Sequence record: MT682707.1
Length of the DNA stretch: 39,305 bases
Strand: one strand, 5' to 3'
DNA from: Escherichia phage vB_EcoP_SP7
The first letter of the stretch is position 1, and the number at the start of each line of letters is the position of its first letter. The position numbers were made by a program, and so were the translations under genes. Positions 4,592 through 34,900 of this stretch are shown piece after piece. The notes under the pieces are model-generated. The model saw only the letters and a program-made list of their open reading frames with translations, did no database searches and was not told where the DNA came from.

Positions 4592-4609
4592 ACTATCACT
4601 ATAGGATTA
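4587..4609 (+). promoter_or_regulatory. Phage-RNAP promoter (phi1.1 position)
   Basis: CTAAACTATCACTATAGGATTAG; +1 at 4604. Confidence 0.8.
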
Positions 4610-4650
4610 GACTCAAGGTCATGACTCAAAGTCGTGGCCTTCATGATTAA
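4609..4650 (+). promoter_or_regulatory. RNase III processing site (R1.1-like)
   Basis: AGACTCAAGGTCA...GTGGCCTTCATGATTAA; the same conserved element recurs at 11899 and 34856 and resembles the recalled T7 R0.5 site GACTCAAGGTCGC..GAGTGGCCTTTATGATT. Confidence 0.7.
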
Positions 4651-4679
4651 CCCTAACTCATTCAATCAGGAGCTACACC

Positions 4680-4859
4680 ATGTATCAGAACACTATCAAC
4701 TTCGAGCGCATCCGTGAACGTCAGCAGACTGAAGGTTACATTCCTAAGGGTCGCAAGCTGAACAAGACCAAACGTGGCGGTGGTGTCAAGGGTGCTTTCC
4801 GTAATGCTGAAGGTAAAGACTCTCTGGTTAACCAAGAGAAGTATTTCGTAGGAGCATAA
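4680..4859 (+). CDS. gp1.1-like small basic protein (59 aa)
   Basis: Contains KGRKLNKTKR, matching the recalled T7 gp1.1 motif; sits directly after promoter plus RNase III site as in T7. Confidence 0.6.
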   Translation: MYQNTINFERIRERQQTEGYIPKGRKLNKTKRGGGVKGAFRNAEGKDSLVNQEKYFVGA

Positions 4860-4863
4860 CCAA

Positions 4864-5127
4864 ATGGGCCGACTTTATAGTGGCAACCTCAACGCTTTCA
4901 AAGCAGCGTGTAACAGGCTCTATCAGTTAGACTTCGCTGTCATATCTCAAGAGTTTCAAGACCATGTGTCACGCCAAGAGTGCATGAAACTCAGGGTGGA
5001 GGACCGAGCTGGTAACATCTTCGCGCTTGAGACCTTCGCACACCACGATGAAGACGTACTGTACAACACTGCAACAGACTTCCTTAATGGTCTCGCTGAC
5101 CACCTCGACACATGGAGCAAATCATAA
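4864..5127 (+). CDS. gp1.2-like inhibitor of host dGTP triphosphohydrolase
   Basis: MGRLYSGNLNAFKAA..QLDFAVI..RVEDRAGN..HHDEDVLYN closely matches recalled T7 gp1.2. Confidence 0.85.
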   Translation: MGRLYSGNLNAFKAACNRLYQLDFAVISQEFQDHVSRQECMKLRVEDRAGNIFALETFAHHDEDVLYNTATDFLNGLADHLDTWSKS

Positions 5128-6233
5128 TGACTACGACTATTAAAACTAACCCGCACCGCGCTGTAGATTACTCTGAGTCCGGCGTTAAGAAAGCACTGGA
5201 AGCTGCCGGGTCACTGGAAGCTGAGGTGAAGTATGACGGTGTGCGCCTGAATCTCCCGGTCTTCCCGACAGGCGAGACCCAGTGGTTGAGCCGAGAGTCC
5301 AAGCCGCTTCCAGCCCTTGAATGGCTATCTGTCCTGACCAGCCTCGACAATATCGTGGAAGACCAGCAGCGCGCTAGCGACTGGCGGTGGTTCCTGAAGC
5401 AAGCTGGCTATGAGGGGACTGGCCTGATGGTTGATGGCGAGGTCATGGTGAAAGGGGTAGACTTCAACACATCCTCAGGTCTCATCCGAACGAAGTGGGT
5501 AAAGCAAAAGAACTTTGAGTTTTCAACTGGTGAGCACTGGGGTAAGAACTGGAAGAAAGAGAATCTACCGTTCTGTCTTGACAGGAAGCACATCAAGGTG
5601 GTCGTCTATGGTATCATCGACCTTAACGTCATCCTCGACCCGAAAGCCGAAGGTCCTATCCATAGCGTCACACGCCTGAAGGCCGAAGCTATCGTCCCTC
5701 TACTTCAGAAATACTTCCCGGAAATCGACTGGGTTCTGTCTGAGTCACACACGGTCTATGACCTTGAGTCGCTCAACTCCCTGTACGAAGAGAAGCGTCT
5801 GGAAGGACACGAGGGTCTGGTAGTCAAAGACCCACTTGGTAAATACAAGCGTGGTAAGAAGTCAGGCATGTGGAAAATGAAGCCTGAGGAGACAATTGAC
5901 GGGACCGTGTGTGGACTCGTGTGGGGGACTCAGGGTAAGGCCAACGAAGGCAAGGTCATTGGTTTTGAGGTTCTCTTGGAGGATGGCATGGTGGTTAACG
6001 CCTGTGGCCTGACTGAGGATCAGAAGGACGAGTTCACGGCAGAAGTATTTAACCGCAATGGGATTGACTCCCAGCGCGAGTACGAGGAATTGCTTTGTAT
6101 TGAGACTTTCAACCCTTACGGCGGGTGGCAGTGCGAGGTCCTCTTCATGGAGCGCTTCCCAGATGGTTCCTTACGTCACCCTAGCTTCAAGTGCTGGCGC
6201 GGGACGGAAGACAACCCTACCATTAAGAGCTAA
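5127..6233 (+). CDS. ATP-dependent DNA ligase (gene 1.3)
   Basis: IKTNP N-terminus, adenylation motif EVKYDGVR, and LMVDGEVMVKGVDFNTSSGLIRTKW match recalled T7 ligase. ATG at 5127 overlaps the gene 1.2 stop (track start 5112 is less likely). Confidence 0.95.
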   Translation: MTTTIKTNPHRAVDYSESGVKKALEAAGSLEAEVKYDGVRLNLPVFPTGETQWLSRESKPLPALEWLSVLTSLDNIVEDQQRASDWRWFLKQAGYEGTGLMVDGEVMVKGVDFNTSSGLIRTKWVKQKNFEFSTGEHWGKNWKKENLPFCLDRKHIKVVVYGIIDLNVILDPKAEGPIHSVTRLKAEAIVPLLQKYFPEIDWVLSESHTVYDLESLNSLYEEKRLEGHEGLVVKDPLGKYKRGKKSGMWKMKPEETIDGTVCGLVWGTQGKANEGKVIGFEVLLEDGMVVNACGLTEDQKDEFTAEVFNRNGIDSQREYEELLCIETFNPYGGWQCEVLFMERFPDGSLRHPSFKCWRGTEDNPTIKS

Positions 6234-6243
6234 CTAAATGTCA

Positions 6244-6276
6244 ACCCAGTGGTCTTAGGACTGCTGGGTCTTTTCA
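6244..6276 (+). terminator. Rho-independent terminator, probable early terminator TE
   Basis: CCCAGTGGTC-TTAG-GACTGCTGGG stem-loop (10 bp including G-U pairs) followed by TCTTTTC; same position after ligase as T7 TE. Confidence 0.6.
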
Positions 6277-6294
6277 CATCTGGAGGTTTACCAA

Positions 6295-6507
6295 ATGTCT
6301 AAGACCAAATTGTTTATCGGACAGTGGGACGTATGGGCGGTGACTGATGGCGTCGTTAGAGTCTGCCCTAAGTATCGCTTTATACTTGGCTACTATGAGT
6401 GGCGTGACGCCTACAGGACTGTATCGTCCCTTGAGGCAGACGAAGGGGTGAAGACCTTAGAGGTCAACAACTTCACTGAGAAGTCCGACCCTAAACTATC
6501 ACTGTAG
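6295..6507 (+). CDS. Hypothetical protein (70 aa), gene 1.4-1.6 region
   Basis: ORF with RBS (GGAGG) after the terminator. Confidence 0.5.
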   Translation: MSKTKLFIGQWDVWAVTDGVVRVCPKYRFILGYYEWRDAYRTVSSLEADEGVKTLEVNNFTEKSDPKLSL

Positions 6508-6512
6508 GACCA
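6490..6512 (+). promoter_or_regulatory. Phage-RNAP promoter, variant core CACTGTAGG
   Basis: CCTAAACTATCACTGTAGGACCA; A to G at -3 relative to consensus. Confidence 0.6.
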
Positions 6513-6546
6513 ACGTCGAGTTCATCAACTCAAAGGAGTAAACACT

Positions 6547-6807
6547 ATGTCTAAGAACTTAATGTTCAACCGTTATTCCAATACCTTCCACCTGTCCCAC
6601 AACCCGTTCGCTTGCATTAAGCGTAACGAGAAGCTGGGATACTTCGGGAAGGCCGTTAAGCTGTCACCTACAGTCTACGCGCTGATTACTCCGGGCAAAG
6701 CTGAAGAGGCTCGCCAGAAGCGTGAGACCAACGTACCTGTGGTCTACACTAAGTGGCCTCGCGTCCGTCTGTTCGTTGAGTTCGTGAAGGAGGTGGTAAA
6801 TGATTAA
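6547..6807 (+). CDS. Hypothetical protein (86 aa)
   Basis: ORF with AAAGGAG RBS. Confidence 0.5.
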   Translation: MSKNLMFNRYSNTFHLSHNPFACIKRNEKLGYFGKAVKLSPTVYALITPGKAEEARQKRETNVPVVYTKWPRVRLFVEFVKEVVND

Positions 6808-7249
6808 CCATAAACCAACTGCTGCCCAAGAACTTCTGGCACTTAACTTTAACGTAAGAGACGAAGCTAGCTGCGGTAAGGGGATAATCTGCAAGGGACT
6901 ATCATGTGATCGATGTCCAATGGTAGGTCAGTTGTCAGGTGATGGAGAGTACAAGACCCTTCGTGACTTACGGGCCTCTGTTGGAACAGTGGGAACGTGC
7001 AGCGAAGACGATGGTGTACGCAAGCCTCCCCACTATCAGGTCTTTGACGGTGTGGAATCCATTGAGGTTATCGCTAGGTCTATGACTGTCAGCGAGTTCC
7101 GTGGTTTCTGCATGGGTAACGTCCTGAAGTATCGACTACGAGCTGGTAAGAAGTCAGAGCTGGCGACTATGGAGAAGGACCTGAACAAAGCAGCCTTCTA
7201 TCAGGAGCTGTTCGACCTACATAAAGGTAAGTGCTATGCTGCCGAGTGA
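6800..7249 (+). CDS. Hypothetical Cys-rich protein (149 aa), possibly DUF3310-like C-terminus
   Basis: Cys cluster CGKGIICKGLSCDRCP; C-terminal GNVLKYRLRAGKK resembles the recalled DUF3310 signature (low certainty). Confidence 0.5.
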   Translation: MINHKPTAAQELLALNFNVRDEASCGKGIICKGLSCDRCPMVGQLSGDGEYKTLRDLRASVGTVGTCSEDDGVRKPPHYQVFDGVESIEVIARSMTVSEFRGFCMGNVLKYRLRAGKKSELATMEKDLNKAAFYQELFDLHKGKCYAAE

Positions 7250-7326
7250 GTGGTGCCGGGAGATGTACGAGAAGACTCTCAACCCGGACTACATTACGCT
7301 ATACAACCAATGGAAGGAGCGCGGTT

Positions 7327-7486
7327 TATGACTGAGGTTGAGAAGAAATACATCGTGGAGCTTGAGGGTCGCGTTCAGTCCTTCGAGGTTCCGGTGTACG
7401 CAAAGTCTCTTGAAGAGGCTACCATGAAGTCCCAAGAGTATGAGGACGCTGGGTTTGTGGTCGGACGGATTCGTCCTGAGACCTAA
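7327..7486 (+). CDS. gp2-like inhibitor of host RNA polymerase
   Basis: [14 protein letters not shown]...[10 protein letters not shown] matches recalled T7 gp2 (SFEVPIYAETLDEA...AGFEVTRVRP). AAGGAG sits 8 nt upstream of ATG 7327; the track's 7250 start is a GTG with no RBS. Confidence 0.75.
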
Positions 7487-7504
7487 ACTATCACTGTAGG
7501 ACAG
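7482..7504 (+). promoter_or_regulatory. Phage-RNAP promoter (phi2.5 position), variant core CACTGTAGG
   Basis: CCTAAACTATCACTGTAGGACAG. Confidence 0.6.
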
Positions 7505-7543
7505 ACGTCCAGTTCGTAACTTTAAAATAGGAGATTTACACCA

Positions 7544-8242
7544 ATGGCTAAAGAGCAACTGAAGACTTTCACCACTCCGGTAGCTGGTATCGTTGAGCCT
7601 TACGCATGGCTAAACAAAGCAGACACCAAGTTCAACGAGCGTGGTGAACACAAAGTCAACCTGACATTCGACCTGAACAACACGAAGGTCCGTAAGATGA
7701 TTGATGTCTTACAGAAGATTCATGACGATGCCTATGCGAAAGCACTCGCAGACCACGAGAAGAACCCACCTCAGGTTCAGCGTGGTAAGAAGCCTATTGA
7801 ACCACGAGAAGGCGACATGCCGTGGATTGAGAATGGTGACGGTACTGTTACCCTGAAGTTTAAGTGCTTCGCGTCTTACCTGAAGGATGGTAAGTCAGAG
7901 CCTATCGTATTACGGTTCTACGACACCGATGCTAAACTCATCCGTGACGTCCCGAATATTGGCGCTGGGTCTAAGCTGAAGGTCAAGTTCAAAGTCCTGC
8001 CGTTCAAGTGGAACGCTGCGACTGGTGCAAGCGTTAAGCTCCAGCTTGAGTCCTGCCTTCTGGTAGAACTGAAGGAGTGGAAAGGTGATGGTGCTGGTGG
8101 TGATGGTGGCTGGGGTGATGATGAAGACCTTGGTACTGGCTACAAAGCGTCAACAGATGGTGACTTCGGGTCTGATGACTTCGGTGATGATGGCTCCGAA
8201 GGTGGTGATGACTCCAGCTCTGGTGGCGATTACGACTTCTAA
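7544..8242 (+). CDS. Single-stranded DNA-binding protein (gene 2.5), 232 aa
   Basis: Same length as T7 gp2.5; conserved NPP..RGKKP, GDMP, ENGDGT, KLKVKFKV..KWNAATGASVKLQLES and the acidic C-terminal tail ending in F. Confidence 0.95.
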   Translation: MAKEQLKTFTTPVAGIVEPYAWLNKADTKFNERGEHKVNLTFDLNNTKVRKMIDVLQKIHDDAYAKALADHEKNPPQVQRGKKPIEPREGDMPWIENGDGTVTLKFKCFASYLKDGKSEPIVLRFYDTDAKLIRDVPNIGAGSKLKVKFKVLPFKWNAATGASVKLQLESCLLVELKEWKGDGAGGDGGWGDDEDLGTGYKASTDGDFGSDDFGDDGSEGGDDSSSGGDYDF

Positions 8243-8694
8243 TGGCCCAATGGTCTGCAAAACGGGGGCACTCTGTGGGTGCCTACCGCTCTGGACTTGA
8301 AGCCAAGAACCAGCAGTGGCTGGAACAGAACGGCGTCAAAGCGGAGTACGAAAGCCATTATATCAACTATGTGATTCCGGCTTCCGACCACAAGTACACA
8401 CCAGACTTTATCCTTCCAAACGGGATCATCGTGGAGACCAAAGGTATCTTCGATAGTGATGACCGTAAGAAGCACCTTCTGGTACGAGAACAGCACCCAG
8501 AGTTAGACATCCGGTTCGTGTTCTCAAGTTCCCGCTCCAAGCTATACAAAGGGTCTCCGACCACGTATGGCGCATGGTGCGAAAAGAACGGCTATAAGTA
8601 TGCCGATAAATTCATCCCGGTTGAGTGGCTTCGAGAGGCGACTGTACGTCTGCCTTCAGGTATACTCATCCCTAAGAAGAAAGGAGTTAAGTGA
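8242..8694 (+). CDS. Endonuclease I, Holliday-junction resolvase (gene 3)
   Basis: YRSGLE, YTPDFILPNGIIVETKG, DDRKKHLLVREQHPELDIRFVFSSSRSKLYKGSPTTYG match recalled T7 endonuclease I. Confidence 0.95.
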   Translation: MAQWSAKRGHSVGAYRSGLEAKNQQWLEQNGVKAEYESHYINYVIPASDHKYTPDFILPNGIIVETKGIFDSDDRKKHLLVREQHPELDIRFVFSSSRSKLYKGSPTTYGAWCEKNGYKYADKFIPVEWLREATVRLPSGILIPKKKGVK

Positions 8695-9185
8695 TGGGCA
8701 AGAAGTTTAAACTGTTAGAAGATAAGTGTGGCTGGTCTCGTGGGACTATCGTTACCAAGTGTGAGAATGATCCCGAACCCGATTCAGGAATGACCCTAGT
8801 TGAGTGCCAGACTCCAGGAGCATACAAACATGGGTCTAACGGCCGCAATACTCAGCCTGAGGGTATGTGGGGAGCATGGGTCCCTAATTACGAACTTGAG
8901 GAAATCAAACCAGAAGGGGAACTCACTGGAGTGCAGACCACTCAAGTCCTGCCAGCTTCTAGCGTACCACCTTTGACTGTGAAGCGTGAAGTCCTGACCA
9001 TCGACAAGATTGGTGTAGGCCAGACGTTCATCGTCCACGGCAAGCCTGACGAAGTTTACGTGAAGATTAGCAACTCACACGTCTTCAACCATAAGCGTCT
9101 CCAGATGCACACCACGGACGCACAACGCTTCACCCAGCACCTGAATCTAGTGGTCGTAGAATTGGTGGTGTACAATGGTAAGTAA
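8694..9185 (+). CDS. Hypothetical protein (163 aa) inserted between endonuclease I and lysozyme
   Basis: ATG overlaps the gene 3 stop, with AAGGAG RBS; no T7 counterpart (genes 3 and 3.5 are adjacent in T7). Confidence 0.55.
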   Translation: MGKKFKLLEDKCGWSRGTIVTKCENDPEPDSGMTLVECQTPGAYKHGSNGRNTQPEGMWGAWVPNYELEEIKPEGELTGVQTTQVLPASSVPPLTVKREVLTIDKIGVGQTFIVHGKPDEVYVKISNSHVFNHKRLQMHTTDAQRFTQHLNLVVVELVVYNGK

Positions 9186-9633
9186 GGTGCAATTCAACCA
9201 ACGGTCCCGGACTGACGCTATCTTCGTTCACTGTTCGGCTACCAAGCCAGAGATGGACATCGGGGTAGAGACCATCCGTATGTGGCACAAGCAGCAAGGC
9301 TGGCTGGACGTAGGCTACCACTTTATCATCAAGCGAGACGGTACTGTGGAAGAGGGTCGACCGGTCAATGTCGTAGGGTCACATGTTAAGGACTGGAACT
9401 CACGGTCTGTAGGCGTCTGCCTTGTAGGTGGAATCAACGCTAAGGGTCAGTTTGAAGCTAACTTCACTCCAGCCCAGATGAACTCCCTGCGCAACAAGCT
9501 GGCTGACCTGAAGTCCATGTATCCTCAGGCAGAAATCAAAGCACACCATGACGTAGCACCTAAGGCGTGTCCAAGTTTCGACTTGCAACGCTGGCTGTCT
9601 ACCAATGAACTGGTCACTTCCGACCGTGGATAA
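9175..9633 (+). CDS. Lysozyme, N-acetylmuramoyl-L-alanine amidase and RNAP inhibitor (gene 3.5)
   Basis: VQFNQRSRTDAIFVHCSATKP...WLDVGYHFIIKRDGTVEEGR...APKACPSFDL...NELVTSDRG is nearly collinear with recalled T7 lysozyme. Confidence 0.95.
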   Translation: MVSKVQFNQRSRTDAIFVHCSATKPEMDIGVETIRMWHKQQGWLDVGYHFIIKRDGTVEEGRPVNVVGSHVKDWNSRSVGVCLVGGINAKGQFEANFTPAQMNSLRNKLADLKSMYPQAEIKAHHDVAPKACPSFDLQRWLSTNELVTSDRG

Positions 9634-9733
9634 GATAGACTTTCTGCTTATCCTTCTGTTATCAGGAGCAATCACCTTCGTAGGATGGTGGTTCTTCCCT
9701 GAACACTTTGAACTCTAAAGGAGAACAACCCCA

Positions 9734-9949
9734 ATGATTAAACTTATTGAATTTCTTGGTCGTCTGGTGGTGCGTGGCTATCGTCGTGCTGCGGTTATGG
9801 AACGAAAGGTAGCAGAGAAGACCGCTGACGGTGCGGCTGATGCTGCTGCTCTAGCTGACAAGCTGACAATCCAGTCACTGGAAGCTGGCATGAAGGCTCG
9901 TCAGGCTGATACCAAAGCTGACCAGTTGGCGCATTTCTTCAAAGCCTAA
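9734..9949 (+). CDS. Hypothetical protein (71 aa), Ala-rich
   Basis: ORF with AAAGGAG RBS between lysozyme and the gene 4 promoter. Confidence 0.45.
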   Translation: MIKLIEFLGRLVVRGYRRAAVMERKVAEKTADGAADAAALADKLTIQSLEAGMKARQADTKADQLAHFFKA

Positions 9950-9967
9950 ACTATCACCTTAGGGATG
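9945..9967 (+). promoter_or_regulatory. Divergent phage-RNAP promoter-like site upstream of gene 4
   Basis: CCTAAACTATCACCTTAGGGATG; the upstream specificity region is intact, with two substitutions at -4 and -3. Confidence 0.45.
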
Positions 9968-10014
9968 GGACCGTGAGTCCTGTCCCTTTGTCCGCGTTTG
10001 TGATTAAGGAGTGA

Positions 10015-11894
<1,880 letters not shown>

Positions 11895-11898
11895 GTCT

Positions 11899-11940
11899 AG
11901 ACTCAAGGTCATTCACAGCGAGTGGCCTTTATGATTAGAC
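11899..11940 (+). promoter_or_regulatory. RNase III processing site upstream of the DNA polymerase gene
   Basis: AGACTCAAGGTCATTCACAGCGAGTGGCCTTTATGATTAGAC; same conserved element as at 4609 and 34856. Confidence 0.7.
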
Positions 11941-11957
11941 TAAACGGAGGATTAACC

Positions 11958-14129
11958 ATGTTTGACCTTAAGAGTATCTGGGGTTCTGACATCGAGACAA
12001 ACGGTCTCCTTGATACAGTCTCCCAGTTTCACTGTGGGGTACTGATTAACGCCGAGTCGAATGAGACCCTTAAGTATGGGGTAGCTCCGATGGTCGGTAT
12101 CATCGGTGGCTTCAAAGAGTATGTTCATAAAGTGGAAGAGATTGCCGCATCACCTGATGGTATGCTGGTATTCCACAACGGTATCAACTATGACGTCCCT
12201 GCTATTGACAAGCTGAAACGTCTGTACCTTGGGAAACGCTTTAACTTCCCGAAACACAAGATGATTGATACATTGGTGTTGGGACGCTTGATGTATCCCA
12301 ACATTAAGTTCTCAGACATGGGCGCGGTGAAAGCGGGTCGTCTACCACCTAAGATGATGGGACGTCAGTCTCTTGAGGCTTGGGGCTATCGTCTTGGTGA
12401 GATGAAAGGTGAGTACAAACACGATTACGTTGCCAAGTGCAAGGCTGAAGGTATCGAATATAAGGCTGGGGACGAATGGTTGTTCCCATCTCAGGAGATG
12501 CTGGACTATAACGTTCAAGACGTTGTGGTCACACTGGAGTTGTTCAAGAAGTTCCTGACTGACAAGTATTACTTCCAGTCTGAACAGTTCGCTTTCGACC
12601 AGATTTATGCGTTGCGTCTGGAACATGATGCTGCGTGGACCTGTGCGAAGATGGAACGTAATGGCTATCCAATGAACACCGAGATGGTCGAAGGCTTATA
12701 TCGTGAACTCACCGTCAAACGTGCAGAGCTGCTGGACAAGCTGCGCTCGACTTTCGGTAGCTGGTACGCACCAAAGGGAGGCAAAGAGTTCTTCAAGCAC
12801 CCCAGGACAGGCAAGGACCTTCCGAAGTATCCGCGAGTCGTGTATCCTAAAATAGGTGGCATCTTTAAGAAGCCGAAGAACAAAGCTCAACGCTTAGGTC
12901 TTGAACCTTGTGAGCGCGATACGCGAGACACGATGGAGGGAGCACCGTTCACGCCTATAACTTACGTTGAGTTTAATCCGGGAAGCGGAGACCACTTAGC
13001 GAAAGTCCTGATGGAGCGTGGATGGGAGCCTGTAGACTTCACTGACACCGGGAAACCTGTAGTCGATGACGAGACGTTAGAACACGTTAAGTTACAAGAT
13101 GAAGAGGCTCAGGCTTGCGTAGAGCTGGTCCGCGAGTATCTGGTAGTCCAGAAGCGCATCGGTCAGGCGGCTGAAGGTAAGAACGCATGGTTGAAACTTG
13201 TAGGTCCAGACGGACGTATGCACGGTTCAATCAACCCATGTGGTGCAGTAACCGGACGTGCGACCCATAGTACACCAAATATGGCTCAGGTCCCGGCTAA
13301 CGGTGCCCCATACGGTGAGACTTGCCGTGGTGCTTTCGGTGCAGCGTGGAACAAGACTAACGGTGAGCCAGACCCTTGGCTTCAGGTTGGTGTGGATGCT
13401 TCAGGTCTTGAGCTTCGCTGTCTGGGGAACAGAGCGGCTCCGTTTGACGGTGGTGAATACGCCAAGACTGTGGTCGAAGGTGACATCCACTGGGCCAACG
13501 CAGTAAACGCTGGGTTAGCACCTAACGTCCAACGCGATAAGTCTAACCACGACCATGATGCTTTCCGTAATAACGCTAAGACGTTCATCTATGCGTTCCT
13601 GTATGGTGCCGGGGCCGCGAAGATTGGACTGATAGTTGGAGGTGGTAAGAAGGAAGGTTCAGCTCTCATGAAGAAATTCATTGAGGGTACACCAGCCATA
13701 AAGGACCTCAGGGAAGCTGTGCAGAACACGCTCATCTCAGAGTCGAAGTGGGTAGATGGTGAGAACATCGTGAAGTGGAAACGTCGCTGGCTGAAAGGTC
13801 TGGATGGTCGCCGCATTCACATCCGGTCGCCACACTCAGCACTTAACGCATTACTTCAGGGCGATGGTGCGGTAGTCTGCAAGCACTGGATGGTACTTAC
13901 TGAGAAGAAACTTGAAGAGGCTGGTTACGGTAACGGATGGGACGGTGATTTTGCGCTAATGGCTTGGATTCACGATGAATTGCAGATAGCGTGTCGTACT
14001 CAGGAGATAGCAGAAGATGTCGTCCGTATTGCTCAAGAGGCGATGCGTGAGGTCGGACGCTTCTATAACTTCAAGTGTGAACTTGATACGGAGGGTAAGA
14101 TTGGACCAACGTGGAAAGAGTGTCATTGA
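11958..14129 (+). CDS. DNA polymerase (gene 5), family A
   Basis: 3'-5' exonuclease motif DIETNGL and polymerase motifs (VTGRATHS, RDKSNHDHDAFRNNAKTFIYAFLYGAG, WIHDELQ) match recalled T7 DNAP. ATG 11958 has a GGAGG RBS; the track's 11922 start overlaps the RNase III site. Confidence 0.97.
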   Translation: MFDLKSIWGSDIETNGLLDTVSQFHCGVLINAESNETLKYGVAPMVGIIGGFKEYVHKVEEIAASPDGMLVFHNGINYDVPAIDKLKRLYLGKRFNFPKHKMIDTLVLGRLMYPNIKFSDMGAVKAGRLPPKMMGRQSLEAWGYRLGEMKGEYKHDYVAKCKAEGIEYKAGDEWLFPSQEMLDYNVQDVVVTLELFKKFLTDKYYFQSEQFAFDQIYALRLEHDAAWTCAKMERNGYPMNTEMVEGLYRELTVKRAELLDKLRSTFGSWYAPKGGKEFFKHPRTGKDLPKYPRVVYPKIGGIFKKPKNKAQRLGLEPCERDTRDTMEGAPFTPITYVEFNPGSGDHLAKVLMERGWEPVDFTDTGKPVVDDETLEHVKLQDEEAQACVELVREYLVVQKRIGQAAEGKNAWLKLVGPDGRMHGSINPCGAVTGRATHSTPNMAQVPANGAPYGETCRGAFGAAWNKTNGEPDPWLQVGVDASGLELRCLGNRAAPFDGGEYAKTVVEGDIHWANAVNAGLAPNVQRDKSNHDHDAFRNNAKTFIYAFLYGAGAAKIGLIVGGGKKEGSALMKKFIEGTPAIKDLREAVQNTLISESKWVDGENIVKWKRRWLKGLDGRRIHIRSPHSALNALLQGDGAVVCKHWMVLTEKKLEEAGYGNGWDGDFALMAWIHDELQIACRTQEIAEDVVRIAQEAMREVGRFYNFKCELDTEGKIGPTWKECH

Positions 14130-16241: not shown

Positions 16242-16367
16242 TTTACTGGGCCGGACTTCTGGCCATTTACTGCATGTACAAGTGGTTTGGGTCAAACAAC
16301 CGTCCTAAACACTGAGTCTAACCGATAGTCATATCCTATCAATCCAACAGTCATCCATAGGTGAAAC

Positions 16368-16390
16368 ACTAAACTATCACTATAGGGACT
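16368..16390 (+). promoter_or_regulatory. Phage-RNAP promoter (phi6.5 position)
   Basis: CACTAAACTATCACTATAGGGACT; +1 at 16385. Confidence 0.85.
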
Positions 16391-16451
16391 TTAGGACCTA
16401 AGATATGACTATAAGATAGACTTTAGTCTTAACTTAAAGAGGAGATTCAAG

Positions 16452-17627: not shown

Positions 17628-19196
17628 ATGGCTGAACGTGAAGGGTTCGCTGCTGAAGGAGCCAAAGCGGTCTATGACCGACTGAAGAACGGTAGACAGC
17701 CATATGAGACACGCGCTCAGAACTGTGCTGCTGTCACTATCCCGTCACTGTTTCCTAAGGAGTCCGACAACTCGTCCACTGAGTACACAACTCCGTGGCA
17801 AGCTGTAGGTGCTCGCTGCTTGAACAACTTGGCGGCAAAGCTGATGTTGGCGTTATTCCCTCAGTCACCGTGGATGCGACTAACAGTCTCAGAATATGAG
17901 GCCAAGACCTTGAGTCAGGACTCAGAGGCTGCTGCTCGTGTTGACGAGGGGCTTGCTATGGTCGAGCGTGTGTTGATGGCATACATGGAGACAAACAGTT
18001 TCCGTGTGCCATTGTTCGAAGCTCTGAAGCAGCTTATAGTCTCCGGTAACTGTCTGCTCTACATTCCAGAGCCTGAACAGGGAACCTACAGTCCTATGCG
18101 AATGTACCGCTTAGTGTCCTATGTTGTTCAACGTGATGCTTTCGGTAACATCTTACAGATTGTGACTCTCGACAAGGTAGCGTTTAGTGCTCTACCGGAA
18201 GACGTGAAGTCTCAACTAAACGCAGATGACTATGAGCCTGACACAGAGCTGGAAGTGTATACGCACATTTACCGTCAGGACGACGAGTATCTGCGCTACG
18301 AGGAAGTGGAAGGAATTGAGGTAGCAGGGACCGATGGTTCTTACCCACTGACTGCCTGTCCATACATCCCGGTACGAATGGTTCGACTGGACGGTGAAGA
18401 CTATGGTCGCTCTTATTGCGAGGAGTATCTGGGAGACCTGAACTCGCTGGAGACGATTACAGAAGCTATCACCAAAATGGCTAAGGTAGCCTCCAAGGTG
18501 GTTGGCCTCGTTAACCCGAACGGTATCACGCAACCTCGTCGTCTGAATAAGGCGGCTACAGGTGAGTTCGTGGCTGGTCGCGTCGAGGACATCAACTTCC
18601 TGCAACTGACGAAAGGTCAGGACTTTACGATTGCCAAGTCGGTGGCTGACGCTATCGAGCAACGTTTAGGATGGGCCTTCCTTCTTAATAGTGCCGTTCA
18701 GCGTAATGCCGAGCGAGTCACTGCTGAAGAGATTCGTTATGTTGCCGGCGAACTGGAGGCGACCTTAGGTGGTGTGTACTCAGTACAATCCCAAGAGCTT
18801 CAGTTACCTATCGTCCGTGTGCTGATGAACCAACTTCAGTCTGCTGGCATGATTCCTGACCTTCCGAAAGAAGCGGTAGAGCCTACTGTCTCCACTGGTC
18901 TGGAAGCGTTAGGTCGTGGTCAAGACTTGGAGAAGCTAACTCAGGCAGTCAACATGATGACCGGTCTTCAGCAGCTCTCTCAGGACCCAGACATTAACTT
19001 GCCGACCCTGAAGCTTCGACTGCTGAATGCATTAGGTATTGACACAGCTGGTTTGCTACTGACTCAGGATGAGAAGATTCAGCGCATGGCTGAGCAGTCG
19101 TCTCAACAGGCAGTTGTCCAAGGCGCTAGTGCTGCTGGTGCTAACATGGGTGCTGCTGTAGGTCAGGGAGCTGGTGAGGACATGGCTCAAGCCTAA
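17628..19196 (+). CDS. Portal (head-tail connector) protein (gene 8)
   Basis: Collinear with recalled T7 gp8 (GAKAVYDRLKNGRQPYETRAQNCA, PWQAVGARCLNNLAAKLMLALFP, YRLVSYVVQRDAFGN, VRMVRLDGEDYGRSY, VTAEEIRYVAGELEATLGGVYS). Confidence 0.97.
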   Translation: MAEREGFAAEGAKAVYDRLKNGRQPYETRAQNCAAVTIPSLFPKESDNSSTEYTTPWQAVGARCLNNLAAKLMLALFPQSPWMRLTVSEYEAKTLSQDSEAAARVDEGLAMVERVLMAYMETNSFRVPLFEALKQLIVSGNCLLYIPEPEQGTYSPMRMYRLVSYVVQRDAFGNILQIVTLDKVAFSALPEDVKSQLNADDYEPDTELEVYTHIYRQDDEYLRYEEVEGIEVAGTDGSYPLTACPYIPVRMVRLDGEDYGRSYCEEYLGDLNSLETITEAITKMAKVASKVVGLVNPNGITQPRRLNKAATGEFVAGRVEDINFLQLTKGQDFTIAKSVADAIEQRLGWAFLLNSAVQRNAERVTAEEIRYVAGELEATLGGVYSVQSQELQLPIVRVLMNQLQSAGMIPDLPKEAVEPTVSTGLEALGRGQDLEKLTQAVNMMTGLQQLSQDPDINLPTLKLRLLNALGIDTAGLLLTQDEKIQRMAEQSSQQAVVQGASAAGANMGAAVGQGAGEDMAQA

Positions 19197-24714: not shown

Positions 24715-24738
24715 CTTATTGAATGGCCTATAGATTTA

Positions 24739-24761
24739 CCTTAACTATCACTATAGGGACT
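24739..24761 (+). promoter_or_regulatory. Phage-RNAP promoter (phi13 position)
   Basis: CCTTAACTATCACTATAGGGACT; +1 at 24756. Confidence 0.85.
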
Positions 24762-24790
24762 ATAGGCCCTTAAGGTTATAAGGAGACTTT

Positions 24791-25273: not shown

Positions 25274-25833
25274 GAGTACTGTCTGTAGCCGGGGCCACTA
25301 TGTCCGCATCCCAACAGGCCAAGGCCGAAGGTGCAGCAATTGACGCTCAGAACCGACAGGCTCAGGAAATGGTTAAGCAGATGAACTACTCTGACGCCAA
25401 CCTGAAGATGCAGGAGCGCTACCTGAAGGAGCAGCAGATGGCTGAACTGACAGAGACCACGCTTAACGGTATCCGCAATCAGGGTATGGTCCGAGCTGCG
25501 GTGGCTGAGTCCGGTCTGGAAGGTAACTCTATGGACAGGATTGAACGTCAGGTCGAAGGAGATACAGTCAAGGAGCGAGCAGGGATTACCGAAAGTTACA
25601 ACCGCGACTATGCGGCTATCTTCGGGAACCGTATAGCCAACATTGAGAACACAAAGTCTGCTATCCGTGGTCAAGGTAAAATCATCAAGACCAGCCCGCT
25701 GGCTCATGCACTTAATGTTGCTAACGCCGGGATGCAAGGCTACGTCGCTGGTAAGTCAATCTCTGGAGAGTCCAGCTCTGGTGGTTCTGCACCAATTAGT
25801 GCTGCTAAAGGCACACCTACAGGTCATAGCTAA
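25246..25833 (+). CDS. Internal virion protein B (gene 14)
   Basis: MC... N-terminus, GNSMDRIERQVEGD, RDYAAIFGN and C-terminal PISAAKGTPTG match recalled T7 gp14. Confidence 0.9.
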   Translation: MCEPVSIGLGVLSVAGATMSASQQAKAEGAAIDAQNRQAQEMVKQMNYSDANLKMQERYLKEQQMAELTETTLNGIRNQGMVRAAVAESGLEGNSMDRIERQVEGDTVKERAGITESYNRDYAAIFGNRIANIENTKSAIRGQGKIIKTSPLAHALNVANAGMQGYVAGKSISGESSSGGSAPISAAKGTPTGHS

Positions 25834-25844
25834 GAGGAGGACTA

Positions 25845-28127: not shown

Positions 28128-28131
28128 CATA

Positions 28132-31100
28132 ATGGCGACTCGTGGTATTCGCAATAACAATCCGGGTAACATCCGGGTAAGTAAGGACCAATGGGAAGGA
28201 ATGACTGGGGATGATGGTGCATTCGTCATCTTTGATAGTCCAGAGTCTGGCGTCCGAGCTTTAGGTAAAAACCTGCTGTCCTACGGTCGCCAAGGTTATG
28301 ACTCCATCGAGAAGATTATCAACAGATGGGCTCCTCCTAACGAGAACGACACTCAGGCTTATATTGACTCTGTGGTGGCTGCGACTGGTATTCCAGCTAC
28401 CCAGAGTCTCGACCTCTCGAACCCGGACACCCTGTCTTCTCTGGCTCAAGCTATCAGCTTCCATGAGACAGGCTCCCGGTACAATCCTGAAGTATATCAG
28501 AAGGGAGTCGCACGAGCACTAAACGGTATCAGCCCAAAGACTCCACCAGTAAGCGCTAACGTAGTTGACGCACTCACGGAAGGACTCAAGGCTAAACCTA
28601 AAGTAGCTCTGGGAGAGAACCTTCCGACCGCTGCTGGTCTGAACATTGAGGGTCAAGCACCTGAAGCTCCAAACGAATCGTTCGGTGAGATGTTCTATAA
28701 GGCTACTGGCGAGACAATGCAGGAACGAGATGACCGCTCTACGTGGTTCGGCTTCGGGGCGGCTACAGAAGCTGAAGTGAAGAACTCTATGGTCGGCGTG
28801 GCTATCCGCGCTGGTCAGACCGAGGACTCACTTGATGTAATTGGCGATGTGTTCAACCCGACCCGCTGGAACAACCATAAGTGGACTCGTGAGGAGCTGG
28901 ACCAGATTCGTAACGCTGGGGTTCTGCCTCAGTATTACGGAGTCATTACTGGTGGCTCTCCTCAGAACCTGACCGAGCTGATTAACTTGGCGCTTGAGAA
29001 CCAGAAGTTGGATCAAGAGAAGGCCAAGGCCGGTATTGGTGCTCAGTTAGCTGCTGGCGTGATTGGTGCTGGTGTAGACCCGCTGACCTACGTTCCTATC
29101 GCTGGACAGGTTGGTAAGGGTGGTAAGCTGGTCAACAAGATGTTCACCGTGGCTGCTCAATCTGGAGCGCTGGCTGGTGTGTCTGAGATGGCTCGTACCT
29201 CAGTGGCTGGTGGTGATGCTCATGTGGCTGAAGCTATCCTCGGAGGTGCTCTCTTCGGGGGCGGAATGACCGCTATCGCTGACGGCTTAGGAAGAGCCTT
29301 AGGTCGCAACACTAACGAGTTCGCTGGCCCGGCTACACGTCTGGAAGCCCGTGAGACTGCTCGTAACGTTGATGGTCAGGACCTGTCTCGTCTCCCTATT
29401 CAGGAAGGTGAGCAGACCTTTAGTCATCAAGGCGTTAAGTTCGCTGACGTTCAGAATGAGCCGGGTAGTGTACGACTGGAGGATGGTTCAATCCTGATTG
29501 GTGAGAACCCTCTGAACCCTAAGACACGTCAGGTCTTTGACGAAGTGATTGAGCCTGAACGCGCAGCCGCTGGTGTTAACCTTGGGGGGCTGACTGAGAT
29601 TGGCCTGAAGCTGCTTCGGTCAGAGAACCCTGAGATTCGTGGAGTCGCTGCTGACTTAGTGCGTTCACCGACTGGTATGCAGTCAGGAGCCTCAGGTAAA
29701 ATTGGGACCACTGCGTCAGACGTGTTCGAGAGACTTCGTGCTGTGGACCATCGGTTCTACAACGACATCGACGATGCTGTTACTGAGGCACTCAAGGACC
29801 CCTACTTCCAGACAGCATTCTGGCGAGACTCTGGCGCATTCCGTCAGGACATCTACCAGCGTGTGTCTATGGCTATTGAAGATGTAAGTGGGAACCTGAA
29901 GGCTGAACTGACTCCGGGAGAACTGAAAGTCTATGACCTGCTGAAGAATCAGTTTGACGCAAAGCGTGAGATGATGGAGAACCCAGCTATGTTTGGTCGT
30001 CCAGACGCTAAGTCTATCTTCCCCGGCAGTCGCTTCAAGGGAACCTACGTCCCGCATGTGTATAGCAATCAGATGAAGGAGCTGTACATCAAGGAGCTTG
30101 GAAGCCCAGAGGCACTACAGGAGGCCATCAAGAAGTCATGGTTGACCAGCTATGCGTCTCGACCTGAAGTCAAGAAACGTGTGGACGAGGCACTCTTAGA
30201 GGCTGACCCTACGTTGACTCCAGATGGACTTGCTGCTGCGGTCTATAAGTACGCTAACGATAAGGCTTACGGTATCTCTCACACCGAGCAGTTCGAGCGT
30301 TCATCCGTAATGGAAGAGAACATCAATGGTCTGGTGGGTTTGGAGAACAACAGCTTCCTTGAGGCTCGTAACCTGTTTGATAGCGATATGTCAATCGTTC
30401 TGCCGAACGGTCATACCTTCAGTGTCAACAATCTGCGTGAGTGGGACATGGATAAGATTGTCCCTGCTTATAACCGTCGAGTTAATGGTGACATTGCTAT
30501 CATGGCTGGTACAGGAAAGACTACGAAGGAAATGAAGGATTTAGTTGAGACCATGATGAATAAGGCTGGTGATGATGGAAAGTTGAAAGGTGAGGTATCT
30601 ACCTTACGTGACACCCTGAAGATTCTAACTGGTCGTGCTCGACGTGATGGCGCTGATGATGCGGCCTTCGCTACCGTGATGCGCACGATGACAGACCTAT
30701 CGTTCTTCGCTAAAAATGCCTACATGGGTGTGCAGAACTTAACGGAGATTGGTGGTATGCTGGCTCGTGGTAACGTTCGTGCATTGCTACATGGAGTTCC
30801 TATGTTCCGTGACCTAGCCTTCCGTAACAAGAAGGTAGGGGCCTCAGAGATTAAGGACCTGCACAATGTTATCTTCGGTAAGGAACTGGACGACTCAATC
30901 CGCCCGTCTAAACAGGATGTCATCGACCGTCTGCGGTCTTACAGTGACCTCGGTCGTGGTGCAGCCACAGCTCTGGGGACTGCCAAGTATTACACTGGTG
31001 AACTTGCAGTACGCTCGCCGTTCACTAAAGTCCTCAACGGTACGACAAACTACCTGTTAGATGCTGGACGTCAAGGCTTCCTGTCTGACATCGTGGAGCA

Positions 31101-32019
31101 TAGTCTGACTGGCAGTAAGCGTCGGTTCGATGACCGCTGGCTGAAGACCGCTGGTATCTCTGACGAGCAGTGGAAGGGCATTAAGTCCCTAATCCGTGAG
31201 TCAGTGACTCGTGGTCCAGACGGGAAGTACACCATCAAGGATAAGAAGGCGTTCAGTCAGGACCCAAGGGCTATGGACTTATGGCGTATGGGTGACACCA
31301 TCGCTGATGAAACGTTACTACGTCCTCATAAGCTGTCCAACATGGATGCAAAGGCTTATGGTCCTCTCGCTAAGACTGTCCTTCAGTTTAAGAACTTCGT
31401 CATCAAGTCCATCAATGGGCGTACCATGCGAACCTTCTATAACGCCACGAAGAACAACCGAGCGATGGATGCTGCTCTGTCCACTGTGATGTCTATGGGC
31501 CTTGCTGGTATCTACTACATGGCTCAGGCACACATCAAGGCTTACGCTATGCAGGATGGTCGTGACCGTGACTACCTCAAGCAAGCTCTTGACCCGACGA
31601 TGATTGGTTACGCGGCTCTGTCCCGTAGCTCACACTTGGGTGGGCCACTTGGGGTAGCTAACATTCTGGGTGGCATCGCTGGGTATGAGGACACCAAGAT
31701 GCTCCGTTCGTCTATACTACCTCGTTCGCCTACAGAGAAGCCTGAACGTGCCATCTCGTATGGTGCAGCTACAAGTGACCCTGTGATGAATGTCGTCGGT
31801 AACTTCTTGGAGCAGGTTCCAGCTTTCGGATATGCTGCTAACGTTGGCGCTTCGGCTTACAACTTGGCTGGCTACCTCAAGGCGGATACTCGGGTAAACG
31901 AGAGAGACTACATGACCGGGATGTATAACACCTTCCGTGAACTGGTTCCGAACGACCCACTTACTCAGAAGTTGCTACTGGGAACGTTTGAGGAGCAAGG
32001 TATCCACATCAAGGACTAA
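28132..32019 (+). CDS. Internal virion protein D (gene 16) with a non-T7 N-terminal domain
   Basis: Residues after about 250 are collinear with recalled T7 gp16 (RLEARETARN, DLVRSPTGMQSGASGK, FLEARNLFDSD, RRVNGDIAIM, FFAKNAYMG.QN.TEI.GM, WTK.LNGTTNYLLDA, DPTMI..AALSRSS, ELVPNDPLTQ). The first ~130 aa (GIRNNNPGNIR...) differ from the T7 SLT-type lytic transglycosylase module. Confidence 0.95.
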   Translation: MATRGIRNNNPGNIRVSKDQWEGMTGDDGAFVIFDSPESGVRALGKNLLSYGRQGYDSIEKIINRWAPPNENDTQAYIDSVVAATGIPATQSLDLSNPDTLSSLAQAISFHETGSRYNPEVYQKGVARALNGISPKTPPVSANVVDALTEGLKAKPKVALGENLPTAAGLNIEGQAPEAPNESFGEMFYKATGETMQERDDRSTWFGFGAATEAEVKNSMVGVAIRAGQTEDSLDVIGDVFNPTRWNNHKWTREELDQIRNAGVLPQYYGVITGGSPQNLTELINLALENQKLDQEKAKAGIGAQLAAGVIGAGVDPLTYVPIAGQVGKGGKLVNKMFTVAAQSGALAGVSEMARTSVAGGDAHVAEAILGGALFGGGMTAIADGLGRALGRNTNEFAGPATRLEARETARNVDGQDLSRLPIQEGEQTFSHQGVKFADVQNEPGSVRLEDGSILIGENPLNPKTRQVFDEVIEPERAAAGVNLGGLTEIGLKLLRSENPEIRGVAADLVRSPTGMQSGASGKIGTTASDVFERLRAVDHRFYNDIDDAVTEALKDPYFQTAFWRDSGAFRQDIYQRVSMAIEDVSGNLKAELTPGELKVYDLLKNQFDAKREMMENPAMFGRPDAKSIFPGSRFKGTYVPHVYSNQMKELYIKELGSPEALQEAIKKSWLTSYASRPEVKKRVDEALLEADPTLTPDGLAAAVYKYANDKAYGISHTEQFERSSVMEENINGLVGLENNSFLEARNLFDSDMSIVLPNGHTFSVNNLREWDMDKIVPAYNRRVNGDIAIMAGTGKTTKEMKDLVETMMNKAGDDGKLKGEVSTLRDTLKILTGRARRDGADDAAFATVMRTMTDLSFFAKNAYMGVQNLTEIGGMLARGNVRALLHGVPMFRDLAFRNKKVGASEIKDLHNVIFGKELDDSIRPSKQDVIDRLRSYSDLGRGAATALGTAKYYTGELAVRSPFTKVLNGTTNYLLDAGRQGFLSDIVEHSLTGSKRRFDDRWLKTAGISDEQWKGIKSLIRESVTRGPDGKYTIKDKKAFSQDPRAMDLWRMGDTIADETLLRPHKLSNMDAKAYGPLAKTVLQFKNFVIKSINGRTMRTFYNATKNNRAMDAALSTVMSMGLAGIYYMAQAHIKAYAMQDGRDRDYLKQALDPTMIGYAALSRSSHLGGPLGVANILGGIAGYEDTKMLRSSILPRSPTEKPERAISYGAATSDPVMNVVGNFLEQVPAFGYAANVGASAYNLAGYLKADTRVNERDYMTGMYNTFRELVPNDPLTQKLLLGTFEEQGIHIKD

Positions 32020-32037
32020 ACTATCACTATAGGAAAC
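32015..32037 (+). promoter_or_regulatory. Phage-RNAP promoter (phi17 position)
   Basis: ACTAAACTATCACTATAGGAAAC; +1 at 32032, followed by a GGAGAC/GTCTCC hairpin at 32038..32059. Confidence 0.85.
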
Positions 32038-32082
32038 GGAGACGCTACCATAGGTCTCCATTTAAATCACAAAGGAGGCATA

Positions 32083-34269
32083 ATGTCCACGATTACACAA
32101 TTCCCCACAGGAAACACTCAGTACAGGATTGAGTTCGACTACCTATCCAGAACGTTTGTTGTTGTTACGCTGGTGAATAGCTCTAACCCTACCCTGAACC
32201 GTGTACTGGAAGTTGGTCGAGATTACCGATTCCTTAATCCAACGATGATTGAGATGTTGGCTGACCAATCAGGTTTCGACATCGTTCGTATTCACCGTCA
32301 GACTGGAACTGACTTAGTGGTAGACTTCAGAAATGGCTCAGTGTTGACAGCCAGTGACCTGACCAATGCAGAGCTTCAGGCTATCCATATTGCAGAAGAG
32401 GGTAGGGACCAAACGGTTGACTTAGCGAAGGAATATGCTGATGCTGCTGGTACCTCTGCCGGTAACGCTAAGGATAGCGAGGACGAAGCACGACGAATCG
32501 CTGAGGATATCAAGGCATCTGGTCGAATTGGCTATATTACCCGTCGCTCCTTCGAGAAAGGCTTCAACGTTATAACATGGAACGAGGTACTGCTATGGGA
32601 AGAGGATGGTGAGTATTACCGTTGGGATGGTACGCTTCCAAAGAACGTTCCTGCTGGTTCAACTCCTGAAACTTCCGGTGGGATTGGAGTAGGTGCGTGG
32701 GTTCTCGTAGGTGATGCTTCACTTCGTAGCGCACTAGCTTCTGAAGCAGGGGCATCAATGGTGTCCCGGAACGGCTCACCCCTAGGCAGAATCATTCGTG
32801 CGTCACTCTTCGAATACCTTACCGAATCAGATCAGCAAGCATTACTTACTACTTCTGGAGCAGTAGTTGCAGCGGATTATGCGTTAAAAGCCGCTATAGC
32901 TGCTGGAGTTATGGTCCTTGATATACCACGGAACATGGGGATTATTGAACTTGGTAGAGATCCAGCGACGCTTCCATTGGGGTTCTCGCTTATAGGATGG
33001 GGCTGCCGTCGACCTTATACTGTATCAGATGACAGTAGCTTCCTTAATTGCGGGGTAGTTATCCGCGTAGCAGCTGGGGCAAGTTTTCCTTTTTATTCAA
33101 CTGGTCGTCATGTGTTCCGGGATATTGTTTTTGACGGGCGAGATAAAACAACGTATCTTTTTTATTCCACAGATAGGTATACTGAGTTCAACGGTACTCG
33201 ACTAGAGGGGTGCGGAATTTATCGTTTTGCTATTGGTATTGGTTGGAATATTGGAGGAGTATCAAGGTACATTGCAACAGTAAAAGCTCATTTCTGTTCA
33301 ATATCTGGAAACGGGGACGGAGTTAAGAATTTAATAGACTCTATGATGATTGGTTGCACAATCAATGCCAATGACCGAGGCGTAGCTCTTGTCGGCGGGG
33401 CAAATAGTAACTTTTTCGGAGGATGCCGGAACGAATGGAACGCTGGTGATAACTGGTATGCGTATGAATCAATAGAAAACCAGATTTCAGGTGAACTGTG
33501 CGACAGAGCTGGGCGAGGCGGGGTAGTTGCTGGCAAGGATTCGTCATGGATTGTAACCGGAGTTGTCGTCGCTCGCAGTGGTGCTAATCAACCAATGAAT
33601 GATAACTACTCAGCAAACTTTGTTATTATTGATAACGGTAAAATCGTAATCTCTGGGGTGAGAACCAGAAACGGAGCTAACGAGTGGGGTCAGGGTGGGA
33701 CAAATTCTCCATCGTTTAACGTATCGGTTCTTGGTTCTGGTAATGGGACACTCCTGGTATCTGGAAGTGATATGACCGGTTTTGTTACTTCGGCAATTAA
33801 CCAGAAGGCTCCTACATTAAATAAAGCTATAACCGGAAATCTCGGTATGGATGATGATGTAAATGTTGGAATGTCTCAGGTTATTAAAGGAAGACGGATT
33901 ATTGGTTCACAGTCATCAGGTAGATTGCAAGACGCTGTGGGAGCAACGTTATCATTCACTAAGCCCAATATTGCGCAAGATTTATATGGTACATACGTCA
34001 CCAGAGCCATATTGATTGAGTGTAGAATTGGCAATACTGCACAAGGTGATTATATAAAAATACCTATAGGGGTAAGGCACGAAAACAATTTCTATCTTGA
34101 TATCATCACCAGCGGAATTGTTGCAAGCTCTGGAAGGATTGGCCTTTCAGGAACGGGGGTTACTGTTAGCTTATCTATTGATAGCGCAACGGGTGCCATA
34201 TCAGTCGTGTTAACTAGCGTTGATGGGCTGGTGAGAGATGTTAATGTCTCTTTACTACCATCAATGTAA
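32083..34269 (+). CDS. Tail fiber/tailspike (gene 17): T7 gp17-like N-terminal adaptor domain fused to a non-T7 putative beta-helix depolymerase/receptor-binding module
   Basis: N-terminal ~150 aa match recalled T7 gp17 ([47 protein letters not shown]). The rest is unrelated, Gly/Asn/Ser-rich with beta-helix-like repeats, and its coding DNA (about 33000..34270) is visibly AT-rich relative to the genome. Confidence 0.9.
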
Positions 34270-34387
34270 GAGTGAGAACGGAAGTCGAAACAGAACTGGT
34301 GGTTGTGGAGGTAGAGGCTAACTATACGCTGACCAACGTATGTAATAACTTTGGGTCACGGACGACCCGCTTTAAACTGGAGGTTTT

Positions 34388-34582
34388 ATGATTGAGTTAG
34401 ACTTCAAGAATGAGGTCCTTAAAGCCTCTCCTATCGTCGGGACCGCTGCGGCTGATGGTGCCAGTCGGTTCTTCTTCGGGCTCACACTTAACGAATGGTT
34501 CTACGTTGCAGCTATCGCGTACACCGTTGTCCAGATTGGTGTGCTAGTCTATAAAACGATTAAAGGAGGTGGTAAAACATGA
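34388..34582 (+). CDS. Holin, class II (gene 17.5)
   Basis: DFKNEVLKASPIVGTAAADGASRFFFGLTLNEWFYVAAIAYTVVQIG matches recalled T7 gp17.5. Confidence 0.9.
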   Translation: MIELDFKNEVLKASPIVGTAAADGASRFFFGLTLNEWFYVAAIAYTVVQIGVLVYKTIKGGGKT

Positions 34583-34842
34583 CGCAGATGGACTTAGAGA
34601 AGTTCCTCTTAATGCTGGATACTGAACGTGCTCGACTCATGCTGCAAGACCTGCGGGATGACTCTAAGCGTTCACCTCAGCTCTACAACGCCATTGAGAA
34701 GCTGCTTGCTCGTCACAACTTTGTGTTAAGCAAGGTGTCTGTTGACGAGAAGACTCTGGCTGATATGGAGGCCCTGAACGCAGAGTACGATAAGGTGCTC
34801 TCAGCTACGGAAGATAATGACACTGGGTATGGAGTGCAGTAA
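34579..34842 (+). CDS. Terminase small subunit (gene 18)
   Basis: FLLMLDT..A..ML.DL.....RSPQLYNAI motif and position match recalled T7 gp18. Confidence 0.85.
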   Translation: MTQMDLEKFLLMLDTERARLMLQDLRDDSKRSPQLYNAIEKLLARHNFVLSKVSVDEKTLADMEALNAEYDKVLSATEDNDTGYGVQ

Positions 34843-34855
34843 ATCTCTTAAGTGT

Positions 34856-34900
34856 TAGACTCAAGGTCATTACTATATGTAGTGGCCTTTATGGTTAACA
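34856..34900 (+). promoter_or_regulatory. RNase III processing site (R18.5-like)
   Basis: TAGACTCAAGGTCATTACTATATGTAGTGGCCTTTATGGTTAACA; conserved element in the same position as T7 R18.5. Confidence 0.7.

Follow-up and report, generated by a model that had tools for sequence, protein, structure and literature searches.

Three hairpins of Escherichia phage vB_EcoP_SP7 as probable orthologues of the RNase III processing signals R1.1, R4.7 and R18.5 of phages T7 and T3

The polycistronic messenger RNAs of bacteriophage T7 are processed by ribonuclease III (RNase III) at ten sites (PMC6938266). The target of this enzyme comprises a proximal box of 4 base pairs (bp) and a distal box of 2 bp, about 11 bp from the cut; internal loops limit RNase III to one strand, and the resulting 3′ hairpins stabilise the upstream RNA (PMC3867540, PMC1540722). 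Cellular substrates of Escherichia coli, such as the rRNA precursor stems and the rnc leader, are cut by the same enzyme and are expected to follow the same box logic, but their boxes are degenerate, they share no common primary sequence and in many of them both strands are cut (PMC3867540). The phage sites differ from them in combining a fixed sequence with an internal loop that restricts the enzyme to one cut. In phage T3, the homologous hairpins R0.3 to R18.5 are annotated as 'RNase III recognition site' in the RefSeq record NC_003298, and the T7 records NC_001604 and V01146 carry no annotated RNase III features. The present analysis concerns three elements of Escherichia phage vB_EcoP_SP7 (sequence record MT682707.1), studied over a stretch of 39,305 nucleotides (nt) that is referred to as the window. 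Very probably, the three elements act in cis as T7-group signals for RNA processing and are orthologous to R1.1, R4.7 and R18.5 of T7 and T3; they are named here by these types. Their sequence, fold, strand specificity, covariation, synteny and conservation are demonstrated below, while binding by RNase III, cleavage and the exact cut site are inferred by homology with T7. Given the orthology to long-known T7 and T3 sites, the finding as such is already known.

Judged by its sequence, the window is a T7-like Kayfunavirus genome (Studiervirinae) with phages SEA1f, EcoDS1 and K1F as its nearest relatives; the identity amounts to 95% with Klebsiella phage SEA1f and to about 93% with Kayfunavirus phages of the EcoDS1 type, and more than 150 public Kayfunavirus records cover 80% or more of the query. 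The pattern GACTCAAGGTCAT-N(8-16)-GTGGCCTTYATGRTTA occurs in it exactly three times, always on the + strand, and was matched 0 times in 100 dinucleotide-preserving shuffles. An earlier note on this DNA had reported three near-identical elements at operon boundaries, and direct reading finds them within 1-3 bases of where it had placed them. Their near-identity holds for the core alone: it is limited to a 5′ block of 13 nt and a 3′ block of 16 nt (a 29-nt core), and over the complete hairpin, lower stems included, identity among the three copies is only 78-81%. Within the core, ACUC and AAGGUC on the 5′ side and GGCCUU and YAUGR on the 3′ side are exact in all three elements.

The same core is found in T7, where a fixed-spacing pattern with three mismatches returned noise and a variable-gap pattern worked. 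AAGGTC-N-GGCCTT occurs there exactly four times, at R0.5, R1.1, R1.3 and R4.7, and R18.5 carries a GGCC/GGUC variant. T7 R1.1, R4.7 and R18.5, and also R0.5 and R1.3, share with the window elements the core ACUCAAGGUC...GUGGCCUUYAUGRUU, in the same stem/loop/stem architecture, on the same strand and at the same genome positions, which bears out the earlier note's comparison with the core of T7 RNase III sites. The upper stem of the R4.7-type element is base for base that of T7 R1.1, the standard in vitro substrate of RNase III. At the base of the upper stem, which is regarded here as the proximal box, all three elements match T7 R1.1 exactly; the distal-box pairs equal those of T7 R1.1 in the R4.7-type element and differ in the other two (G-C/A-U and U-A/A-U). 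Upper stems measure 10-12 bp in the window, with loops of 3-5 nt, and 10 bp in T7, and the lower stems and apical loops of the window differ from those of T7 in sequence through compensatory changes. The annotated T3 sites R1.1 (6003-6053), R4.7 (12970-13018) and R18.5 (35038-35088) align with the window elements column for column. T3 has six core-type sites, and the window has three strong ones together with two diverged early copies. In a loose regular-expression scan of seven genomes, the true sites were visible amid noise.

At gathering thresholds, Rfam gave 0 hits in the window. As no Rfam family for T7-type RNase III sites was evident, a covariance model was built from five T7 and six T3 sites, aligned, with zero window sequence among the seeds. 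The window was searched with filters off, and the E-values are rough owing to a short calibration. The model recovered five hits on the + strand (Table 1), the three strong ones at scores that can be set against the 53-69 bits of the seed sites themselves; beyond these five, a single minus-strand hit was obtained (10.9 bits, E 5.6 over 39 kb and both strands). Across nine genomes, 47 model hits were obtained, including T7 R0.3, R1 and R6.5, all of them outside the seed, and Pseudomonas phage gh-1 gave 0 hits. EcoDS1, K1F and SH3 each contain an identical trio of strong sites at matching positions, 90-100% identical to the window elements site by site. T7 R6.5 is placed by the model at 18498-18578, around promoter phi6.5; nothing structured lies at 18852, a position first assumed for the R6.5 cut, and this position was set aside as wrong.

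Table 1. Hairpins and promoter in the window, with scores from the T7/T3-seeded covariance model, structural coordinates, folding energies with z-scores, and cut sites predicted from T7.
Feature	Positions	Strand	Basis	Model score	Core pattern match	Lower stem	Internal loop	Upper stem	Apical loop	Fold (kcal/mol; z)	Predicted cut
Phage RNA polymerase promoter, phi1.1 equivalent	4591-4606	+	exact match to AACTATCACTATAGGA								
R1.1-type hairpin	4598-4659	+	pattern match, covariance model, fold, synteny	45.9 bits, E 4.3e-8	4610-4649	4602-4610/4647-4655	ACUC 4611-4614 opposite CAUGA 4642-4646	4615-4626/4630-4641	4627-4629	-20.2; -4.2	after U4644
R4.7-type hairpin	11888-11946	+	pattern match, covariance model, fold, synteny	51.1 bits, E 2.6e-9	11900-11937	11894-11900/11935-11941	ACUC 11901-11904 opposite UAUGA 11930-11934	11905-11914/11920-11929		-19.4; -3.4	after U11932
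R18.5-type hairpin	34846-34907	+	pattern match, covariance model, fold, synteny	54 bits, E 5.5e-10	34858-34897	34851-34857/34896-34902	GACUC 34858-34862 opposite UAUGGU 34890-34895	34863-34873/34879-34889		-23.4; -4.65	after U34892
Diverged R0.5-like copy, GAGAGGUCAU...GGUGGCCUC	284-344	+	covariance model	22.1 bits, E 0.014						-19.8; -3.6	
Weak diverged hairpin, tentatively R0.3-like, CAGGGUC...GGCCCUG	38866-38932	+	covariance model	13.4 bits, E 1.5						-25.7; -4.8	

Fold prediction, which the earlier note had suggested as a check, favours the same conclusion. In the minimum free energy and centroid structures of ViennaRNA, the three elements fold like T7 R0.5, R1.1, R4.7 and R18.5, which were folded alongside. 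Each consists of a lower stem of 7-9 pairs, an asymmetric internal loop ACUC/YAUGR, an upper stem of 10-12 bp and an apical loop of 3-5 nt. The reverse complements fold markedly worse (-10.8 to -17.6 kcal/mol, z -0.6 to -2.2), as they have A.C mismatches in place of the conserved G.U pairs, and the signal therefore resides in the RNA of the transcribed strand. The lower stems of the three window copies read GGAUUA/UAACCC, GGUCUA/UAGACU and GUGUUA/UAACAC, so that pairing is preserved and the sequences differ. Over 46 distinct sites from eight genomes, 93% of the alignment cells at paired positions can pair, a proportion that falls to 77% in shuffles and to 27-52% when the partners are slid; double changes occur in 13 of 16 pairs overall, and in eight of the nine lower-stem pairs, and the seven proximal pairs of the upper stem are nearly fixed in sequence.

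A larger sample came from IMG/VR, which was scanned by the exact core pattern and yielded at least 120 stretches, almost all of them from contigs 38-41 kb long. The model finds 155 sites in 80 of these loci, and the best 150 of them comprise 114 distinct sequences, in which the covariation result was replicated. Conservation is 89-100% in the 5′ loop ACUC and the proximal upper-stem pairs, 75-100% in the 3′ loop YAUGA (its first base is polymorphic U/C, 75%) and between 37% and 95% in the lower-stem columns; the seventh upper-stem pair is polymorphic A/G (68%). In over 100 distinct sites belonging to several phage genera, the bases of the internal loop and the first seven pairs of the upper stem are thus far nearly invariant, and the other helix positions drift freely. 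The element is a small, clean example of a sequence-level constraint (loop and proximal stem) and a structure-only constraint (lower stem) within one RNA. Some of the T7-like IMG/VR contigs hold two to three full-scoring core-type sites within 300-700 nt (locus L026, 1579-2287; L013, 3025-3403; L080, 1139-1517); these clusters are probably early-region arrays such as R0.3/R0.4/R0.5, denser than that of the window.

Neighbouring genes were named by PHROGs matches, and the map was compared with the annotated maps of T7, T3, K11 and EcoDS1. The three elements are intergenic and syntenic with R1.1, R4.7 and R18.5 of T7, T3 and K11. The R1.1-type element directly follows the promoter at 4591-4606 and precedes gp1.1 and gp1.2, the latter a dGTPase inhibitor. 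Between a gp4.3-like open reading frame (ORF; 11697-11894) and the DNA polymerase gene (11958-14129) lies the R4.7-type element, which directly precedes gene 5 because the window is without gene 4.7. The R18.5-type element separates the small terminase gene 18 (34579-34842) from the Rz-like spanin gene 18.5 (34953-35402), and its UAUGG variant, in place of UAUGA, is common to R18.5 of T7, T3 and K11. The term 'operon boundaries', used in the earlier note, is therefore loose: the sites do occupy intergenic gaps, but within overlapping polycistronic transcripts, and only the first of them directly follows a promoter. Further departures from T7, which possesses gene 4.7, R1.3 and the gp0.7 kinase, are the missing R1.3 and the missing gp0.7. 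The window and the other Kayfunavirus genomes lack the phi1.3/R1.3 pair of T7, T3 and K11 because genes 1.2 and 1.3 (ligase) overlap (5112-5127 in the window) and leave no intergenic gap. The region from gene 0.3 to gene 1 (window 38961-39305 plus 1-1136) contains no ORF of more than 130 aa between the two genes, and thus the phage has no gp0.7-type protein kinase.

By analogy with T7, the following course of processing can be proposed. In the polycistronic + strand mRNA of the phage, each element would fold into its lower stem, ACUC/YAUGR internal loop and 10-12 bp upper stem, and the host RNase III would bind the upper stem, with the invariant AAGG/CCUU at its base serving as the proximal box and the top of the stem as the distal box. 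A single cut is predicted in the 3′ side of the internal loop, as the loop would give only one strand access to a catalytic site. The T7 cut column ...YAU|G..., which we take to be that of Dunn & Studier 1983, agrees with the alignment of the T7 and window sites and would place the cuts as listed in Table 1. The upstream RNA would then end in a stable 3′ hairpin protecting it from 3′ exonucleases, and the downstream RNA would begin 35, 25 and 60 nt before the next start codon for the R1.1, R4.7 and R18.5 types, respectively. The placement of these signals and predicted cuts on a Kayfunavirus genome has annotation value, as the records of its relatives EcoDS1, K1F and SH3 omit them.

Several points weigh against this interpretation. 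The T7 coordinates behind the predicted cuts do not come from the T7 records, which carry no such features, no cleavage data were found in the literature consulted for this phage or any Kayfunavirus, and the EcoDS1, K1F and SH3 records carry no RNase III site annotation. The missing Rfam family means that there is no curated score threshold to pass, the covariance-model alignments are fitted to the model structure and hence biased towards it, and the core conservation in IMG/VR is in part ascertainment, because the loci were chosen by the exact core pattern. Moreover, the gp0.7 kinase of T7 stimulates RNase III, and since it is missing from this phage the cleavage kinetics may differ from those of T7.

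The earlier note had left open whether the identity of the copies reflects strong selection or recent spread by recombination. A repeat that recently spread within the genome, or was homogenised by recombination or gene conversion, would owe its identity to recent descent and not to selection, and a 29-nt core identical in three copies invites this explanation. One possible conversion is indeed seen elsewhere: in R4.7 of K11 (13461-13523), the upper stem and apical loop are identical at 28 of 28 positions to those of the Kayfunavirus R18.5 (window 34862-34889). Nevertheless, recent spread is very unlikely in the window. Orthologous sites among Kayfunavirus genomes share a mean identity of 96% (minimum 88%), and the lower stem and apex are particular to each site and are conserved at its position in EcoDS1, K1F and SH3. 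Paralogous sites, on the other hand, reach a mean of 79% (maximum 83%) and are no closer within a genome (78.5%) than between genomes (79.3%). The same core also appears in T7, T3, K11 and Berlin, where the elements are 65-80% identical although most 200-nt flanks retain only 35-65%. Together with the UAUGG that R18.5-type sites share across genera, the orthologue/paralogue pattern points to old, positionally stable sites under purifying selection and indicates that the elements are ancient conserved copies, neither new nor recently spread. Of the two possibilities raised earlier, selection is thus upheld and spread by recombination is not. Repeated regulatory motifs of phages can seem freshly copied and yet be ancient and held by selection.

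It is also hardly to be expected that the hairpins act mainly without RNase III, as terminators, pause sites, or stem-loops that stabilise the RNA or regulate its translation. In favour of such a role, the hairpins are stable, intergenic and located on the transcribed strand, and T7 can grow in hosts without RNase III, so that cleavage is not essential (PMC6938266). The terminator scan, however, detected no G+C-rich stem followed by a T-run at any of the three elements, and the missing T-runs rule out intrinsic (rho-independent) terminators. A plain hairpin, moreover, would have no need to keep its internal loop and the base of its stem invariant in over 100 distinct sites while other helix positions drift, and RNase III has been shown experimentally to act on the homologous T7 hairpins (PMC1540722). 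Least probable of all, to the point of being negligible, is a function of the elements as DNA, be it as palindromic binding sites for proteins or as origin or recombination signals. The elements are inverted repeats, and the R1.1 region of T7 overlaps the primary replication origin, but every copy in all genomes lies on the transcribed strand only, lower-stem sequence varies freely as long as pairing holds, and the conserved G.U pairs and the changes via G.U intermediates are meaningful only in transcribed-strand RNA. RNA processing signals of the T7 group remain by far the best account of the three elements.

In vitro work is reported to suggest that accurate cleavage can do without part of the conserved core sequence. 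In that case, the core might be subject to a further constraint besides recognition by RNase III, an idea that we regard as unlikely; another host or phage factor may be responsible, or a non-canonical fold of the loop that enforces the single cut and the protective 3′ end. As for K11, the upper stem and loop of its R4.7 are also close to those of its own R18.5, and conversion between processing sites may have occurred in that lineage.

The count of three sites in the earlier note stands for the strong ones, to which a diverged and a weaker copy have to be added. Half-site searches with mismatches revealed the fourth, diverged copy at 294-334, within the model hit at 284-344 (TAGACGAGAGGTCAT...GTGGCCTCAAAGATTA), which lies upstream of ORF 359-646 and folds into the architecture of the three elements. 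Orthologous hits occur at 1487-1547 in EcoDS1, 1763-1823 in K1F and 2159-2219 in SH3. The hairpin at 38866-38932 lies upstream of the gp0.3 ORF (38961-39302), and its sequence recurs in EcoDS1, where it closely precedes gene 0.3, and in K1F at the matching position; it is tentatively regarded as an R0.3-like site. K1F shows a separate early-region model hit at 1027-1087 (25.7 bits).

The window is a circular permutation of the genome, with its first base just past gene 0.3, and its long ORFs are all on the + strand. The phage promoter consensus AACTATCACTATAGGA has 11 matches in it against 0.4 expected. At the place equivalent to the promoter at 4591-4606, the EcoDS1 record annotates a 'phi' promoter (6034-6056). 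Transcription from the window promoter would start at G4604, and its transcripts would consequently begin within the lower stem of the first hairpin, as in T7, where the phi1.1A transcript starts inside the lower stem of R1.1. Another exact promoter copy (1048-1075) immediately precedes the gene for the phage's own RNA polymerase (1136-3817), with its equivalent annotated in EcoDS1 as a 'phi' promoter at 2244-2266; such an arrangement would permit positive autoregulation. Past this gene 1 promoter, an orphan 5′ half-core GACTCAAGGTC was considered and rejected as a site, being without a 3′ partner and without a significant fold (z -0.09). Repeated GACTTTAAGT motifs are also present past this promoter.

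Other hairpins of the window are associated with promoters. The arms of a long hairpin at 16311-16427 (-33.3 kcal/mol, z -4.0) enclose a phi6.5-type promoter (16372-16387), and its topology is that of R6.5 in T7, T3, K11 and Berlin, but without their AAGGYC/GGCCUU-like core; it gave no covariance model hit and could form only in read-through transcripts from upstream. A 9-bp stem GGCCUAUAG/CUAUAGGCC (24725-24768) encloses the promoter at 24743-24758 and is R13-like, with a z-score of only -1.3, and a tight R3.8-like hairpin GGGAUGGGAC...GUCCUGUCCC (9961-9987, z -2.75) is found just past the promoter at 9949-9964. The latter two resemble the non-core RNase III sites of T7 and T3.

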